Of a stretch of DNA of 64,000 nucleotides, positions 16,605 to 32,646 are shown one piece after another. The notes below the pieces were generated by a model that saw only the letters and a program-made list of their open reading frames with translations, was not told where the DNA came from and ran no database searches. Positions within the stretch are counted from its first letter, which is position 1; each line of letters begins with the position of its first letter. Made by a program: the position numbers and the translations under genes. Source of the DNA: a virus; the IMG/VR virus record IMGVR_UViG_3300032268_001078, positions 32,001 through 96,000 of that record; one strand, written 5' to 3'.

Positions 16605-17495
16605 TTAAATTAATTTAGCTATTGTACTCATAAATGTAATTTCTTTATCTGGTGAATTCATTGAGTTGTGAATTCCTTCAGCAATTGTAATAATAGATTT
16701 AGCATCAGTTGTATTATCATATAATGCTTTATAAATTTCAGTGAAATCTTTTACTCCATTATCTGCTACAATTTGTCTAATTTCAATAAACGCGTCTTTA
16801 GTTTGTAATTTATCAATAATGTCTTGAACATAATTTGACTTAGTAAAACTTTTACCTTGAATACTCAATTTTCCATTTTTAACACACGCTTGTAAGTTGT
16901 TAAGAGTTTTACGAATATCAGGATGAAATGTTTTTACAATTGATACTACTTCTTTTTTATCATATTCAACTGTTTCTTGGTCGAGTATACTCAAACAATG
17001 TTCATAAAGTTGTTTGGGAGTAAGCGAATTTAACGCATAACTTGCTAGTCTCGAATGGAGTGGTGAAATAATTCTATCTGCAAAATTACACGTAAATACA
17101 AAACGAGTTTGTAAACTAAATGTTTCAATAATATTACGTAAAGCAGCTTGAGCATTTAATGTCAAGAAATCAGCTTCATCTAAAATAACTACTTTAAGTT
17201 TTCTAAAGGTAGCAGCACTTGCAAATTGTTTTACTTTATCACGAATAGCATCAATTCCATTTTCATCACTACAATTCAAATACAAATAATCACAGTCAAT
17301 GTTAGATGTAATGATTTTAGCAGCAGTTGTTTTACCTGTACCTGGACCACCGTGAAGTAGTAAGTTAGGAAAGTCTTGATGTGAAATCCATTCTTCTAAG
17401 TCTTCTACCAATGCTTCATTTCCAATATATGTGTCTAAGTTTTTAGGTCTGTACTTCTCTACGTATAGAGTGTGTTTTTTATTTGTTTTTATCAT
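16605..17495 (-). CDS. Clamp loader large subunit (RFC/T4 gp44-like AAA+)
   Basis: VEKYRPK, GGPGTGKT, LDEAD, AQAALR, SR(L), DIR motifs. Confidence 0.92.
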   Translation of the reverse strand: MIKTNKKHTLYVEKYRPKNLDTYIGNEALVEDLEEWISHQDFPNLLLHGGPGTGKTTAAKIITSNIDCDYLYLNCSDENGIDAIRDKVKQFASAATFRKLKVVILDEADFLTLNAQAALRNIIETFSLQTRFVFTCNFADRIISPLHSRLASYALNSLTPKQLYEHCLSILDQETVEYDKKEVVSIVKTFHPDIRKTLNNLQACVKNGKLSIQGKSFTKSNYVQDIIDKLQTKDAFIEIRQIVADNGVKDFTEIYKALYDNTTDAKSIITIAEGIHNSMNSPDKEITFMSTIAKLI

Positions 17496-18058
17496 AACTT
17501 ATTACTTTTTCTTATATTATCACTACACCACATTGGTCTCAAATTGGTATAGTGATTTAGTTTATAAACTTCTTCTTCTGTTGTTGCAGAGCTAGCAGGT
17601 ATGATGTGGTCAATATGCCAAGTTGAATTGTCTTTTCCTATACCCCAATTATCCCAATTCATACCTTCTGTAAATTGTTTTTCTAAATGTTCTTTTAATA
17701 GTTCCCAATTTTCTAAACCAACTATTTTTAATGAATTTTTATTTTTTATAAAGTTTTGTTTATTTAAATAAGTATTAATTTGAGTTGATAAATGATGTTG
17801 AATTTGAAATATTTTATTGTTTTTTCTTTTTTCTTTCATCCAGTTATTCATATAATTTGGGTTAGTTTTGAACCATTCTTGGACTTGCTTTTTTTGTTTT
17901 TCAACAAACTCAGGATTATTTTCTTTATATTGTTTTGAATATAATAATCTTTTTTCTTTGTTTTTATGGTAACTTTTTAAATCAATAGCATTTTTACAAT
18001 CAGTACAATATATTCGATGGTTAGTTATTTCGTTTGTTTTACATTTTGAACATTTCAT
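17492..18058 (-). mobile_element. HNH homing endonuclease-like protein
   Basis: N-term CxxC/CxxC; WHIDHIIP...HYTNLRPMW..DN..K. Confidence 0.8.
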
Positions 18059-18111: not shown

Positions 18112-18870
18112 TTAGTCTATATCTAAATTTAAACTTAAATCGTTTGAAATATATCTCAAATCTTCTAATTTTGCTGATTTTACTCGTAATGCTTGTTGAA
18201 ATTTTCTTTTAATTCCACTCAACTGTTGTAAACGTTTCATTATTTTATCGTGGTTTTTACATAAGAAATCAATACAATCGTCTTTATGTTTTTTATTTTT
18301 CCTATAACTTTCATAAAATGCATAACGTACTTTATATGAAATTGTTTTAGATGGATGTTGAACATAAATAATATGAGGATCATCGTGTGATCTAAAATTA
18401 AGTGGATATAAATTTTCTTGTTTTGAATCAAAGTTATTATCATATTGTGAATTGAAAATATCAATATGAATTTTCAACTTATAATCATATAATCTAATTA
18501 AATTCAGTTTAAGTATATCTTTAGTTGGTATTTTAGCCATATCATCAACTGAAATAATTTCATCATCCGCATATACATCACATACTACTTCTAATTCAAA
18601 TAATGACTTCATAATGTCAAATTCTTCTTCAGTTAATGGTTCTGTTAAAGCAAAGTCTAAATCAGCACTTCTAGTTTTAAAGTCTAATTTAACTAAATCC
18701 AATGCGTGTAATGAAACTGAACCTGCTAATACTAATTTAGGACAAACACTAGTCATTGTAATAAGTCTATTATATAGATCTTCGTTATCAATAAATTGAT
18801 GCGTAGTTGCATAAGCACTTTGTGCTTTTTTTGAATATGATCTTAAATCATAATTAAATTTTTCTTCCAT
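18112..18870 (-). CDS. Putative nucleotidyltransferase (AbiEii/MenT-like motif)
   Basis: LAGSVSL...RSADLDF and a later IDIF strand. Confidence 0.5.
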   Translation of the reverse strand: MEEKFNYDLRSYSKKAQSAYATTHQFIDNEDLYNRLITMTSVCPKLVLAGSVSLHALDLVKLDFKTRSADLDFALTEPLTEEEFDIMKSLFELEVVCDVYADDEIISVDDMAKIPTKDILKLNLIRLYDYKLKIHIDIFNSQYDNNFDSKQENLYPLNFRSHDDPHIIYVQHPSKTISYKVRYAFYESYRKNKKHKDDCIDFLCKNHDKIMKRLQQLSGIKRKFQQALRVKSAKLEDLRYISNDLSLNLDID

Positions 18871-18887
18871 AACCTTTTATTTTGAAT

Positions 18888-18920
18888 AATATAAGAAAAA
18901 AAGCTTGGAAAACCAAGCTT
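18888..18920 (-). promoter_or_regulatory. Sigma70-type promoter overlapping a terminator-like hairpin
   Basis: TTGGTT-N17-TATATT; hairpin AAGCTTGG-TTTT-CCAAGCTT followed by a T tract. Confidence 0.75.
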
Positions 18921-18933
18921 CTTTAAATTTTAG

Positions 18934-19008
18934 TGGGCCCTACAGGGATCGAACCTGTGTATCTCTTCGTTATGAGCGAAGTGCCTTTACCTACTTGGCG
19001 AAAGGCCC
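18934..19008 (-). tRNA. tRNA-CAT (Ile2 or Met)
   Basis: Acceptor GGGCCTT/AGGGCCC, anticodon arm CTTCG-CTCATAA-CGAAG, T arm GGTTCGATCC. Confidence 0.85.
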
Positions 19009-19013
19009 AGAAG

Positions 19014-19085
19014 TACTCCCAACGGGATTCGAACCCGTGACTTGTCCGTGAAAGGGACATGACTTAACCGCTTGTCGATAGGAGC
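19014..19085 (-). tRNA. tRNA-Glu(TTC)
   Basis: Acceptor GCTCCTA/TGGGAGT, anticodon arm TGTCC-CTTTCAC-GGACA, T arm CGGGTTCGAATCCCG. Confidence 0.9.
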
Positions 19086-19094
19086 GTGGTAGGT

Positions 19095-19166
19095 GCACCC
19101 TCCCGGGATTCGAACCCGTGACTTGTCCGTGAAAGGGACATGACTTAACCGCTTGTCGATAGGAGC
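19095..19166 (-). pseudogene. Chimeric second tRNA-Glu copy with a foreign acceptor 3' strand
   Basis: 63 bp identical to 19023-19085, then GGAGGGTGCA, which pairs poorly with GCTCCTA. Confidence 0.65.
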
Positions 19167-19171
19167 AATTG

Positions 19172-19242
19172 TTACCTCCCAAGGATTCGAACCTCAATTA
19201 ATTGGACCAAAACCAATTGTCCTGCCGTTAGACGAGGAGGTA
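19172..19242 (-). tRNA. tRNA-Gln(TTG)
   Basis: Acceptor TACCTCC/GGAGGTA (U1-A72), anticodon arm ATTGG-TTTTGGT-CCAAT. Confidence 0.88.
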
Positions 19243-19254
19243 ATTTATTTTTTG

Positions 19255-19400
19255 TAGTCAGGACAGGACTCGAACCTGTATGGTCTACATTTCTCCTAGC
19301 TGGCCCAATTACCGGGACTCGAACCCGAATGTGTGTGACCTCAATCCAGCTCTAGCGTCTACCACGTCAGGGGACACCCCTAACCTTCCGCCACCTGACT
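19255..19400 (-). ncRNA. Aberrant 146-nt tRNA-Leu-like element with insertions in the D-loop and anticodon arm
   Basis: Acceptor AGTCAGG/CCTGACT, GGCGGAA..TGGTAGACGC D arm, ACAGGTTCGAGTCCTGT T arm; extra hairpin and nested second T arm. Confidence 0.6.
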
Positions 19401-19416
19401 AATTTTAAACCAAAGT

Positions 19417-19593
19417 AGAGTAGAGTTAAACTTTTGCTGAAAAGTCTTAAGTGTTGAGTTTTTCTGGTTTTGAATCTTGGATTTTGAATCTTAAGGCGTT
19501 CATCAATATCAATATCAAAGCATCATGTTATCGTTAGATAGTAATCTCTATCAGAGACGTCCGAAGACGGTGCTACTCATTCAACTCTACTCT
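19417..19593 (-). ncRNA. Unannotated structured RNA with periodic internal repeats
   Basis: 11-bp perfect terminal helix (19417-19427/19583-19593), C(UUCG)G tetraloop hairpin (19558-19569), 7-nt and 6-nt periodic tracts, no ORF. Confidence 0.7.
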
Positions 19594-19602
19594 TTAAATT
19601 GG

Positions 19603-20028
19603 TTATATCATTGTGAGAGCATTATATGCCTCAATTTCTTCTTGAAGAGTTTCAATCTGCTCTTCTATTTCTTTTATTTTAGAATCCTTAGTGAATAAGT
19701 TCATATGAGCTACATACTCAGAAGTAGTATCAGCATAACGATCCTTAATGGTCCCTTCCTGAGTTGATACAATGCGAAGTTTTGCAGCTATACTTTTCAA
19801 TTCTCCTAATTTAAAAATTTTATCAGCAATACCCACATTAGCAATATGAATCTTAGTTTTCAAATCAACCAATTGGTCTGTTAAATTAATCCAACTTTCA
19901 AATGCTTCGCCTGCATCATATCCTACACTTCCTTTTTCTGTTGAGTTGAATTTGCTGAAACGGATGTACATTTCATCGATTTGCTTTACAAGTTTCTTTT
20001 TGTGCTTTAATGCTTTAGTTAAGTTCAT
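19603..20028 (-). CDS. DIP1984-like (DUF6847-like) coiled-coil protein
   Basis: MNLTKAL..K..L N-terminus, LKTKI..AN, C-terminal IE.LQEEIEAYN.LT.I; start re-assigned because the upstream extension overlaps a tRNA-like element. Confidence 0.6.
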   Translation of the reverse strand: MNLTKALKHKKKLVKQIDEMYIRFSKFNSTEKGSVGYDAGEAFESWINLTDQLVDLKTKIHIANVGIADKIFKLGELKSIAAKLRIVSTQEGTIKDRYADTTSEYVAHMNLFTKDSKIKEIEEQIETLQEEIEAYNALTMI

Positions 20029-20048
20029 ATACTTTATTTTTATTTTAG

Positions 20049-20123
20049 TAATCAGGACAGGACTCGAACCTGTAAATGCGCTCCACTTGCTGTGGGTGTG
20101 TCTATCCATTCCACCACCTGATT
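20049..20123 (-). ncRNA. tRNA-like element (Leu-type body, non-canonical anticodon arm)
   Basis: Acceptor AATCAGG/CCTGATT; T arm identical to the 19255-19400 element; anticodon loop lacks U33. Confidence 0.55.
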
Positions 20124-20205
20124 ATTTTTTGCTCTTTATTCTATTACCCTTTTATTTCAGAGCTAACCTGCTTTACTTAAACGAGTTTTTCAAGGGTACA
20201 GGTTT

Positions 20206-20277
20206 TGGGAGCGGACCACGACTCGAACGTGAATTAAAGGTTATGAGCCTTTTGTGTTACCATTACACTAATCCGCT
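20206..20277 (-). tRNA. tRNA-Met(CAT), CCA encoded
   Basis: Acceptor AGCGGAT/GTCCGCT, arm AAAGG-CTCATAA-CCTTT, 3' C-CCA. Confidence 0.8.
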
Positions 20278-20279
20278 AG

Positions 20280-20352
20280 AGCCACCTGCAAGACTCGAAC
20301 TTGCGACCATCTGATTACAAATCAGAAGCTCTACCAACTGAGCTAAGGGGGC
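20280..20352 (-). tRNA. tRNA-Thr(TGT)
   Basis: TAGCTCAGTTGGTAGAGC D arm, TCTGA-TTTGTAA-TCAGA, GCAAGTTCGAGTCTTGC T arm. Confidence 0.9.
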
Positions 20353-20366
20353 TTTTGTGCTCTTAT

Positions 20367-20395
20367 AATATAAGAAAAAATATTATAAAAGCCAA
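20367..20395 (-). promoter_or_regulatory. Sigma70-type promoter for the tRNA cluster
   Basis: TTGGCT-N17-TATATT, 14 nt upstream of tRNA-Thr. Confidence 0.7.
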
Positions 20396-20399
20396 TTTT

Positions 20400-20588
20400 T
20401 TAGTATCTTTCTGGATGTTTATCCATTTCGACTACTTGTCTAACTCCAATTGAATCATTTAAAGTTAATGAATCTTTACATTGTGTTGAATCACATTTTG
20501 TTGAATCACAAGCTGAAGTTGAAGTTGTTTGGTTTGAGGTACAAGCTATAAAACCTACGATTGCTAAAACAATAAATATTTTTTTCAT
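20400..20588 (-). CDS. Small lipoprotein
   Basis: Signal II MKKIFIVLAIVGFIA-C; four D-S-(T/L/I) motifs. Confidence 0.7.
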   Translation of the reverse strand: MKKIFIVLAIVGFIACTSNQTTSTSACDSTKCDSTQCKDSLTLNDSIGVRQVVEMDKHPERY

Positions 20589-31911: not shown

Positions 31912-32646
31912 CTAATCAGCTAGTTTTACAACAAAATACACAGATGTTGTATTATCTTCAGTAAATTCTAATTTTAGTAAACCAGCTTCATTGATTTTTG
32001 CTTTACCCACTGCTGATTTGTTTACAGATAGTATTTCTTTTACAATGTTAGCAGAAAAAGCCATTGGTTCAATACCTATTGTATATTCACTTGGTTGAAT
32101 CATTTTGATTTTATTTGCAAAAGTAGCAGAATCACCTACAGTTAATTCAACATATTTAATACTATCAATATTTTTACATCCAATTTCAAATCTGTTTGGT
32201 TTATCTAAAGCTGAATATGCTTTAGTAAAGTTTTTAATAAAATCTTCATCAATTGAAAATTTTACATCATATTCTTCGGGTTCAGTAATATTAGGAACTG
32301 AAGGAATTAAATCTTCACTAGATAAATAAAAATCTAAATCAAAATCATTGTCTTTAACTTTTAATTGATATGGAATACCCTGATTTCCAGTAATTACATC
32401 AATATTGACCATAGCTATATCCATAATTCCCAACAACTTATTAAATTGAGATGTTGAATAAATACTTATGTTATTTGCGCCGAGTCCTAGATCTTTTGTA
32501 GTAGATACCGAACCAGCACAGTCTTTAGTTGGAGTAACAAATTCTACGCGTATTCCGTCGTTTTCTGTACTATTCCATGTAACGGATTCTATTAAACCAT
32601 TTAAATGATATTTATCAATAATTTGAGTTAAATTTTTCTTTTCCAT
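31912..32646 (-). CDS. Probable DNA sliding clamp (T4 gp45-like)
   Basis: Size and two-domain alpha/beta pattern; clamp loader and PolB present; early-type promoter. Confidence 0.65.
   Translation of the reverse strand: MEKKNLTQIIDKYHLNGLIESVTWNSTENDGIRVEFVTPTKDCAGSVSTTKDLGLGANNISIYSTSQFNKLLGIMDIAMVNIDVITGNQGIPYQLKVKDNDFDLDFYLSSEDLIPSVPNITEPEEYDVKFSIDEDFIKNFTKAYSALDKPNRFEIGCKNIDSIKYVELTVGDSATFANKIKMIQPSEYTIGIEPMAFSANIVKEILSVNKSAVGKAKINEAGLLKLEFTEDNTTSVYFVVKLAD

Follow-up and report, generated by a model that had tools for sequence, protein, structure and literature searches.

The window analysed here is a 64,000-nucleotide (nt) stretch, positions 32,001 to 96,000, of IMG/VR record IMGVR_UViG_3300032268_001078, a complete 179.7-kb virus. 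Its minus strand carries a gene for a 141-residue protein with the DIP1984/DUF6847 fold (19606–20028, stop codon 19603–19605, from the open reading frame, ORF), followed by a structured RNA of ~180–197 nt that forms the 3′ untranslated region (3′UTR) of the gene (19408–19604). This RNA represents a new family that is strand-specific, strongly constrained and inseparable from its DUF6847-fold gene. A preliminary description, made from the letters of the window, had proposed a candidate protein–RNA system here, and each feature that it listed was found in place.

Architecture of the phage-type RNA

The extent of the RNA follows from its predicted fold and from covariance models (CMs), of which R1 was built from the window's clade and R2 is a broadened model. 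R2 scores the window at 173.9 bits (E = 1.8e-30) over 19414–19595. Read 5′ to 3′ on the minus strand, the RNA opens with an outer helix, P0, whose 6-bp 5′ strand (19599–19604) shares two bases with the stop codon and pairs with 19408–19413 in the minimum free energy (MFE) structure; P0 is invariant in close relatives. Within it lies the closing helix P1, formed by a purine-rich 5′ strand (19579–19593) and a pyrimidine-rich 3′ strand (19417–19431). This is the helix that had been described as 11 bp long; it is real, and inspection of the fold extends it to 15 bp with G-U pairs, in addition to the 6 bp of P0. P1 leads into a GAGUA internal loop and a GC step (P1b, 19572–19578, facing 19432–19439); in the window's clade the loop is invariant and faces a purine-rich RAAA segment beside the two-pair GC step. 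Across 21 aligned sequences, GUAGC is invariant and the GC/GC pairs are kept in 20–21. Judged by the known motif consensus, the GAGUA loop appears to resemble a loop-E or sarcin-ricin-type motif.

The P2 hairpin (19558–19570) carries a C(UUCG)G tetraloop that reads as UUCG on the minus strand only. In relatives the stem sequence of P2 is wholly swapped with the loop kept, and other clades have GNRA-like or other loops at this position. Two small variable hairpins (19529–19556) are dispensable, as they are deleted in two related loci (L002 and L032). There follow two periodic tracts, both of which align family-wide. The first consists of three GAU hexamer repeats (19499–19524), whose invariant columns make it the most conserved stretch of the core. 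The second is a G-poor tract of six to seven heptads with the consensus YUCAARA (19438–19495), which runs into a conserved block ahead of the P1 3′ strand. The GAU repeats may pair with the heptads as mini-helices (UUGA with UCAA), or the tracts may be single-stranded.

Folding of the minus strand gives an MFE of −46.1 kcal/mol, compared with −31.2 ± 3.9 for shuffled sequences (z = −3.8). The plus strand is nearly as stable (z = −3.6), such that the strand is not assignable from energy alone. Close relatives carry 17-nt and 1-nt indels within the RNA that break the reading frame, which argues that the RNA is not coding. A 9-codon ORF inside the RNA was considered as a gene and rejected, as it is not conserved in relatives.

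Covariation, strand and selective constraint

The downstream regions of homologous genes were aligned and examined for compensatory change, and the closing helix covaries well beyond chance. In the alignment of 21 sequences, 12 of 14 P1 pairs vary on both sides, and base pairing is retained in 91.5% of closing-helix cells and in 88.8% of cells for the structure as a whole. The observed values exceed those of all 500 shuffles, and controls in which the strands were slid relative to one another are 38–48% paired. No covarying Watson–Crick helix besides the closing one emerged when the family-wide CM alignment and the group-A alignment were scanned along their diagonals.

The same alignment resolves the question of strand. 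By our tally over the relatives, G-U pairs fill 67 of 294 closing-helix cells; read from the opposite strand these would be A-C mismatches, and this fixes the gene strand as the strand of the RNA. Conservation of the UUCG loop agrees with the minus strand, and two helix substitutions among close relatives likewise give G-U pairs on the gene strand only. The unit behind the gene is, as had been supposed, a conserved structured RNA read in the direction of the gene.

Conservation was next compared between RNA and gene. Among four close relatives the RNA is 85–96% identical at the nucleotide level and the proteins are 76–91% identical, and in relatives at ~60% protein identity the RNA is kept with clear compensatory changes. 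RNA nucleotide identity is about equal to or above that of the gene in 14 of 15 relatives, with L003 as an example (95.6% for the RNA versus 76.9% for the gene). The RNA is under purifying selection at least as strong as that on the gene. The periodic tracts recur throughout the family as well: of 95 distinct downstream regions, 70 contain two or more copies of UCAAA and 56 the pattern GAU-GAU-GA(U/A).

Linkage of gene and RNA

Protein-based scans of metagenomes and genomes yielded ~100 further loci whose proteins are 31–59% identical. Nearly all of these loci present a purine-rich strand 0–11 nt past the stop codon that pairs with a pyrimidine-rich strand 150–200 nt downstream; the two closing strands enclose a 5′ hairpin, a GAU-repeat tract, four to seven heptads of the YCAA type and, shortly before closure, a conserved block. 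This phage-type architecture is present in representatives of 31 sequence clusters. The window itself shows all of its elements, namely a closing helix at the stop codon, a 5′ hairpin, GAU and YUCAARA tracts and a pre-closure block, all on the gene strand.

Model R1 already detects the RNA in distant clades. Model R2, run over both strands of 97 loci (372 kb) from phage contigs and from contigs binned into Bacteroidota and Chlorobiota/Ignavibacteria genomes, returns ~78 matches at E < 0.1, of which ~29 come from loci outside the training set. Every one of these matches lies on the gene strand directly after the gene, with none elsewhere in the 372 kb, and the 179.7-kb phage genome contains a single copy. 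The converse search began from the RNA. Two RNA-only patterns applied to IMG/VR recovered genuine RNAs with the gene upstream in 7 of 7 and 14 of 14 cases, respectively, and none of these 21 RNA-first detections is an orphan copy. A further six of the 20 matches to the second pattern have no gene beside them; these six are not recognized by the CM and were therefore counted as chance 16-mers.

Taken together, the R2 and RNA-first results bear out gene and RNA as an obligate pair across many genomes, and the RNA is genetically inseparable from the gene in very different genomic settings. Direct abutment is usual and not absolute, since in two loci (RNAs at L095:1839–2007 and L100:1839–2006) a small ORF is inserted between gene and RNA and the RNA begins ~200 nt past the stop codon.

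The gene encodes a divergent DUF6847-fold protein

Several lines of evidence uphold the earlier placement of the protein as DIP1984/DUF6847-like. The window protein aligns with the NCBIfam model NF038048 (DIP1984_fam) over residues 3–137 of 141 (23.6 bits, E = 4.6e-5), a score that does not reach the 70-bit cut-off of the model. PF20935 (DUF6847) gives no match to the window protein at E ≤ 1, and nothing in Pfam is significant; the same PF20935 model matches 11 of 22 close and distant relatives, with a best E of 4.5e-8. Alignment of profile A2 to profile A8, which represents canonical members, with hhalign gives 82% probability (E = 9.9e-6) over 90 columns covering the first two helices. Because this family support is moderate, the window protein is filed as a divergent phage subfamily of DUF6847.

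The AlphaFold 2 model (predicted local distance difference test score, pLDDT, 93.6) comprises three long helices and a β-hairpin. Comparison with the PDB identifies 3KDQ, a Corynebacterium diphtheriae protein of unknown function, as the only convincing match, with a Foldseek probability of 1.00 and a template-modelling score of 0.75–0.78, and with a VIA-align Z of 12.9 at a root-mean-square deviation of 3.3 over 139 residues. The next match has a Z of 9.6, and the remaining matches cover the helical hairpin only. Neither Foldseek nor VIA-align finds an enzyme-like relative of the fold in the PDB, and searches of the window protein against PHROGs and PADLOC return coiled-coil noise only. Inspection of conserved positions shows four lysines of the N-terminal helix 1 (K8, K10, K12 and K15) to be invariant among relatives. 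A candidate histidine in the conserved helix-2 motif is not invariant.

Prediction of a four-copy complex favours self-association, with a score of 0.77 versus 0.15 for the best control. The score mark used was calibrated on two-copy predictions, unlike the four-copy run made here. It is attained by 20 of the 30 proteins whose structures hold two copies of one chain and by one of the 23 whose structures hold a single chain. The runs agree in at least 95% of contacts, with a partner pLDDT of at least 89; the related 3KDQ has four chains in its solved structure, and this pass may therefore reflect memory of it. In the prediction, two copies associate as an antiparallel helix-2/helix-2 dimer; contacts were reported for one pair of copies, with none of higher order. 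The conserved helix-2 motif sits inside this interface and the invariant helix-1 lysines lie outside it, which would leave the lysines free for a ligand. The preliminary description had envisaged a ring protein in the manner of TRAP, with one repeat bound per subunit; an antiparallel dimer without a ring replaces it in the prediction.

Bacterial DIP1984 genes carry an RNA of their own

To place the pair within its protein family, we turned to canonical bacterial DIP1984 genes. All 15 that were checked, from seven phyla, are followed by a distinct conserved structured RNA; the set spans Actinomycetota, alpha-, beta- and gamma-Pseudomonadota, an Acidithiobacillus-labelled genome, Myxococcota, Bacteroidota, Cyanobacteriota and Bacillota. 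In annotated records the gene is succeeded by an unannotated gap of 270–620 nt, the exceptions being two short called ORFs. Examples of the RNA lie at L142:1957–2181, L143:1954–2168 and L144:1945–2114, with others in L145–L155 on plasmids and chromosomes. The layout, over ~170 nt, consists of an outer helix, an invariant GCG/GA internal loop and an inner helix (AGYRC with GYRCU), together with a T-arm-like hairpin in GC-rich genomes and a C/A-rich, G-poor tract ahead of the 3′ strands.

RNAalifold analysis of ten sequences from five phyla indicates covariation in both helices, with 12 of 15 pairs compensatory. Five loci fetched later served as an independent test (the Acidithiobacillus-labelled genome, Advenella, a Myxococcota metagenome-assembled genome, Bizionia and Neolewinella), and a motif-plus-helix script found the same architecture in all five, with new compensatory variants. 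Nine bacterial loci searched against Rfam 15 at E ≤ 1 gave no match to this RNA. An analogous pairing of gene and RNA thus exists in bacterial members of the protein family, and carriers of the module range from phages through small plasmids (8.7-kb Acinetobacter plasmids) to megaplasmids and chromosomes.

Two observations concern the surroundings of individual bacterial genes. In a Bacteroidota genome, a canonical DIP1984 gene lies directly behind tRNA-Gly and tRNA-Val (L128:1211–1422), a position reminiscent of the phage cassette with its tRNAs. An Enterococcus faecalis plasmid has a T-box leader-like match (L144:1095–1324, minus strand) of 83.3 bits, below the gathering score of 93, in antisense orientation upstream of its DIP1984 gene.

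Genomic context and expression

Within the window, the pair lies within a predicted minus-strand transcription unit (18897–20395) delimited by promoter-like and terminator-like consensus matches. From its 5′ end the unit comprises a promoter-like site (20367–20395), tRNA-Thr, tRNA-Met, tRNA-Cys, the gene, the RNA and a tRNA-like element, and thereafter tRNA-Gln, two tRNA-Glu, tRNA-Met and a terminator-like hairpin (18897–18924). The gap between tRNA-Cys and the start codon is 19 nt, and the non-coding stretch between the gene and the tRNA-like element is ~200 nt. Co-transcription with tRNAs, as first suggested, is compatible with these predicted flanking sites at the window's locus and is not general, as many relatives have an intrinsic terminator of their own and no tRNAs nearby.

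The 146-nt tRNA-like element directly 3′ of the RNA (19255–19400, minus strand) resembles tRNA-Cys in its acceptor stem and T arm and contains ~70 surplus nt, which include a second T-arm-like hairpin. It scores 25.5 bits against the Rfam tRNA model, below the gathering score, and is not called by ARAGORN; L001 and L020 carry other inserts at this site. The two minus-strand genes downstream of the tRNA cluster (18112–18870 and 17492–18058) have no Pfam match at E ≤ 0.001.

Neighbours of the cassette vary by clade and include tRNA arrays, Hsp70, an RNA-repair haloacid dehalogenase (HAD) domain protein, dCMP deaminase and lysis genes or peptidoglycan hydrolases, with no neighbour gene conserved across clades. 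This variation from clade to clade marks gene and RNA as a conserved, mobile unit. Among individual neighbourhoods, the HAD domain of 'Swiss Army Knife' RNA-repair proteins (PF18143) follows the cassette at L006:3682–4260 and L013:3961–4545 and is confined to one clade, and a phage Hsp70/DnaK precedes the cassette in L008 and L013 (L013:1056–2912). A freshwater metagenome contig carries a full-length GOLLD RNA of 241 bits among tRNAs, ~500 nt downstream of the cassette (L041:1728–2162, plus strand).

Related contigs contain Por_Secre_tail sorting domains of the type IX secretion system type, and relatives are binned mainly with Crocinitomicaceae, Flavobacteriia and Chitinophagaceae; both point to a freshwater Bacteroidota host. 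Cultured phages offered no close DNA match, and the best protein match, at 33% identity over 58% of the query, belongs to an uncultured record; no model phage in culture came to light.

Three studies' RNA libraries contain contigs that match the RNA at 90–99% identity, and one of 260 nt bridges the 3′ end of the gene and the 5′ part of the RNA. Most of the gene is not covered, and two contigs stop at 19568 without a loose end; as the genes of relatives are too divergent to align, neither observation is given weight. These assembled contigs, in which DNA carry-over is possible, lend weak support to transcription of the RNA.

Relation to known systems

Drum RNA had been suggested as a possible relative of the element. 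Rfam 15 returns nothing but tRNAs at E ≤ 10 over 18800–20500 on both strands, and the phage-type RNA has no match in 29 related loci at E ≤ 0.1–0.5. Drum RNA is thereby rejected as a relative. In all, Rfam scans of the window, the 29 phage-type loci and the nine bacterial loci detect tRNAs, the one GOLLD RNA and the one sub-threshold T-box only. The RNA is similar to orphan motifs such as GOLLD, drum and Rfam motifs associated with domains of unknown function in its covariation, its fixed gene neighbour, its occurrence in phages and its frequent proximity to tRNAs, but no Rfam 15 family matches the window or related loci. The closest affinity is to DIP1984/DUF6847 itself (PF20935, NF038048; 3KDQ), whose bacterial members have the same fold and length and likewise a structured RNA downstream, although the RNA of the window belongs to a different sequence family.

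Members frequently bear the name 'septicolysin' and are counted among the virulence factors of Acinetobacter resistance plasmids. The label 'septicolysin' or 'pore-forming toxin' is automatic annotation only, and a 141-residue helical bundle is unlike the cholesterol-dependent cytolysins. The paper that popularized the name for Acinetobacter plasmids gives the role of the protein as unknown (PMC3358182). In the searchable open-access literature, a limit within which a report could have gone undetected, queries for DIP1984, DUF6847 or PF20935 return one unrelated mention, and 'septicolysin' combined with small RNA returns none. Neither of the two RNAs, phage-type or bacterial-type, nor any function of the protein family is described in Rfam 15, Pfam, PHROGs, PADLOC, the PDB or that literature.

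Type III toxin–antitoxin systems (ToxIN, CptIN, TenpIN) resemble the pair in that a protein gene and a repeat RNA are encoded in cis and occur in phages, plasmids and chromosomes. Their antitoxin RNA precedes the toxin gene, from which a terminator separates it, and is made up of tandem ~36-nt repeats that the toxin, a β-rich endoribonuclease, cuts. The RNA of the window, in contrast, lies downstream as one closed structure with 6–7-nt motifs, and its protein is a helical bundle. Searches of Pfam, PADLOC and the PDB provide no match between this helical protein and a ToxN/AbiQ-type endoribonuclease. The type III comparison offered in the preliminary description therefore breaks down in three respects, namely the fold of the protein, the position of the RNA and the type of repeat.

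With CsrA and its RNAs CsrB and RsmZ, and with TRAP and its leader RNA, the pair has in common many short, regularly spaced motifs, presumed to be single-stranded in the window RNA, and a protein dimer or oligomer. TRAP is a ring of about 11 β-sheet subunits, each of which binds one triplet repeat. The window RNA lacks GGA and GAG/UAG motifs, its protein has an unrelated fold with no ring in the prediction, and the RNAs of CsrA and TRAP, unlike that of the window, are not encoded in the 3′UTR of their own regulator. A TRAP-like arrangement was rejected on the helical fold, the contacts of a single pair and the presence of hexamer and heptamer motifs instead of GAG/UAG triplets.

A further likeness, in the seven-base period and the similar unit, is to the heptanucleotide arrays of Bacteroidetes, Cyanobacteria and Beggiatoaceae, which have been proposed as sites for single-strand RNA-binding proteins (PMC4679880). 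These arrays are perfect intergenic tandems that lack a closing helix, hairpins and a protein, whereas the heptads of the window are imperfect, few and embedded in a conserved structured RNA. A search of 151 Bacteroidota genomes with R2 returned the known locus and heptamer-array-like matches in 11 of the 150 other sampled genomes. Nine of these were read (L132 and L134–L141; G007, G051, G103, G015, G071, G127, G064, G099 and G150) and proved to be perfect heptamer arrays close to the heptad unit of the RNA, sometimes with two different arrays adjoining, and with no DUF6847 gene nearby. As the nine are plain heptamer arrays, R2 is not specific below ~50 bits in AT-rich genomes.

Interpretation and alternatives

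Our preferred working model, which we regard as about equally likely to be right or wrong, is a ribonucleoprotein particle (RNP) assembled in cis in which the RNA regulates or sequesters the protein by titration; the binding at its centre is what we infer. The RNA would be bound specifically by the protein whose gene it follows. Newly made protein, released where translation stops at the base of the closing helix, would meet the RNA of its own transcript, and because the RNA lies directly behind the stop codon, the particle would assemble in cis. The likely contact surfaces of the protein are the lysine-rich N-terminal helices outside the predicted dimer interface, and those of the RNA may be the conserved internal loop, the G-poor periodic tracts (GAU hexamers and YUCAARA heptads) or both. 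A probable role of the long closing helix is to mark the RNA for excision from a polycistronic or tRNA precursor and to protect its ends. The RNA would then hold, buffer or direct a protein whose other targets are similar single-stranded or T-loop-like motifs of cellular RNAs, by a logic that may be likened to CsrB holding CsrA or to a type III antitoxin holding its toxin.

Several observations weigh against this model. Linkage is no proof of an RNP on its own, because a 3′UTR element is linked to its gene by definition. Neither covariation nor other evidence bears on the state of the periodic tracts, and thermodynamic prediction leaves the YCAA repeats ~50% and the GAU repeats ~33% unpaired, with uninformative base-pair probabilities. 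The predicted dimer provides no subunit number to match six to seven heptads. Inspection of the wider family adds that the window protein falls below the curated cut-offs of NF038048 and PF20935, and that the phage-type and bacterial-type RNAs are common in layout with no detectable sequence homology, R2 being blank on L128 and L129.

The definitional linkage of a 3′UTR to its gene leads directly to an alternative that we judge unlikely, in which the RNA is purely cis-acting and binds no protein. Such an element would protect the mRNA 3′ end, direct RNase processing from the tRNA precursor or couple termination to folding. It would account for an RNA that starts 0–11 nt past the stop codon, holds stop-codon bases in its outer helix, always occurs in cis and often sits between stop codon and intrinsic terminator. 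Protection of an end, however, would not call for ~180 nt, long and apparently unpaired tracts included, to be kept at 95% identity beside a gene at 77%, nor for a complex RNA of ~170 nt with invariant loops to persist in seven bacterial phyla.

Slightly less probable is that the RNA works in trans as a decoy or sponge that captures a host factor, with the protein as a helper only or unrelated. Targets could be OB-fold (oligonucleotide/oligosaccharide-binding) proteins such as cold-shock proteins and S1, each taking about one heptamer, or tRNA-handling enzymes drawn to the T-loop-like UUCAA. Family-wide retention of the G-poor heptad tract fits such a role, as do the T-arm-like hairpin of GC-rich bacterial versions and the frequent placement of the cassette within tRNA arrays. 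The protein-free heptamer arrays in 11 of 150 other Bacteroidota genomes (nine read) also fit, and CspB binds one heptamer per protein (PMC4679880). A decoy would nonetheless need no fixed gene partner, yet the 21 RNA-first detections include zero orphans; many loci have no nearby tRNAs, and the T-loop likeness amounts to 5 nt with the stem absent.

We find it doubtful that the pair is a new kind of toxin–antitoxin, addiction or defence module, in which free protein is harmful and a labile co-transcribed RNA neutralizes it by binding. A small two-gene module whose RNA bears short repeats, and which moves among phages, plasmids, megaplasmids and chromosomes, would suit this role. The protein has no nuclease-like fold or motif, its helix-2 histidine is not invariant and PADLOC returns only coiled-coil noise, and the RNA is downstream instead of upstream and lacks ~36-nt tandem repeats. 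It is very improbable that the element acts as DNA (origin, iterons or packaging site). Short direct repeats, an inverted repeat and the near-equal folding of both strands would allow it. Against it stand the G-U pairs in 67 of 294 helix cells, each an A-C on the opposite strand, a UUCG loop that is kept on a single strand, the constant placement and direction of the element with respect to the gene, and its location within the predicted transcription unit.

Significance for the DUF6847 family and for phage tRNA islands

We know of no test of the function of any DUF6847 protein. The family is large, as two bacterial query searches return 608 and 1166 clusters and 369 plasmid records hold a member. 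The presence of a conserved structured RNA with every member examined gives DUF6847 its first concrete, testable property, and the companion RNA suggests that the toxin label is wrong.

An extension of the working model, tentative and somewhat unlikely in our estimate, is that DUF6847/DIP1984 proteins and their own 3′UTR RNAs form a widespread, unrecognized class of bacterial and phage RNP, borne by chromosomes, plasmids and phages in at least seven phyla, whose RNA in part imitates features of tRNA and which acts on tRNA metabolism or translation. The imitation would take the form of a T-arm-like hairpin in GC-rich bacteria and of T-loop-like heptads in phages. If this is true, the RNP would act, for example, in phage takeover or in conflicts between mobile elements.

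For RNA biology, the analysis adds two RNA families that are absent from Rfam, both strongly covarying. The arrangement is also unusual in that a complex RNA adjoins the stop codon of the gene for its presumed partner, which would be a simple route to assembly in cis. For phage biology, the pair is a new component of the little-understood non-tRNA content of phage tRNA islands.

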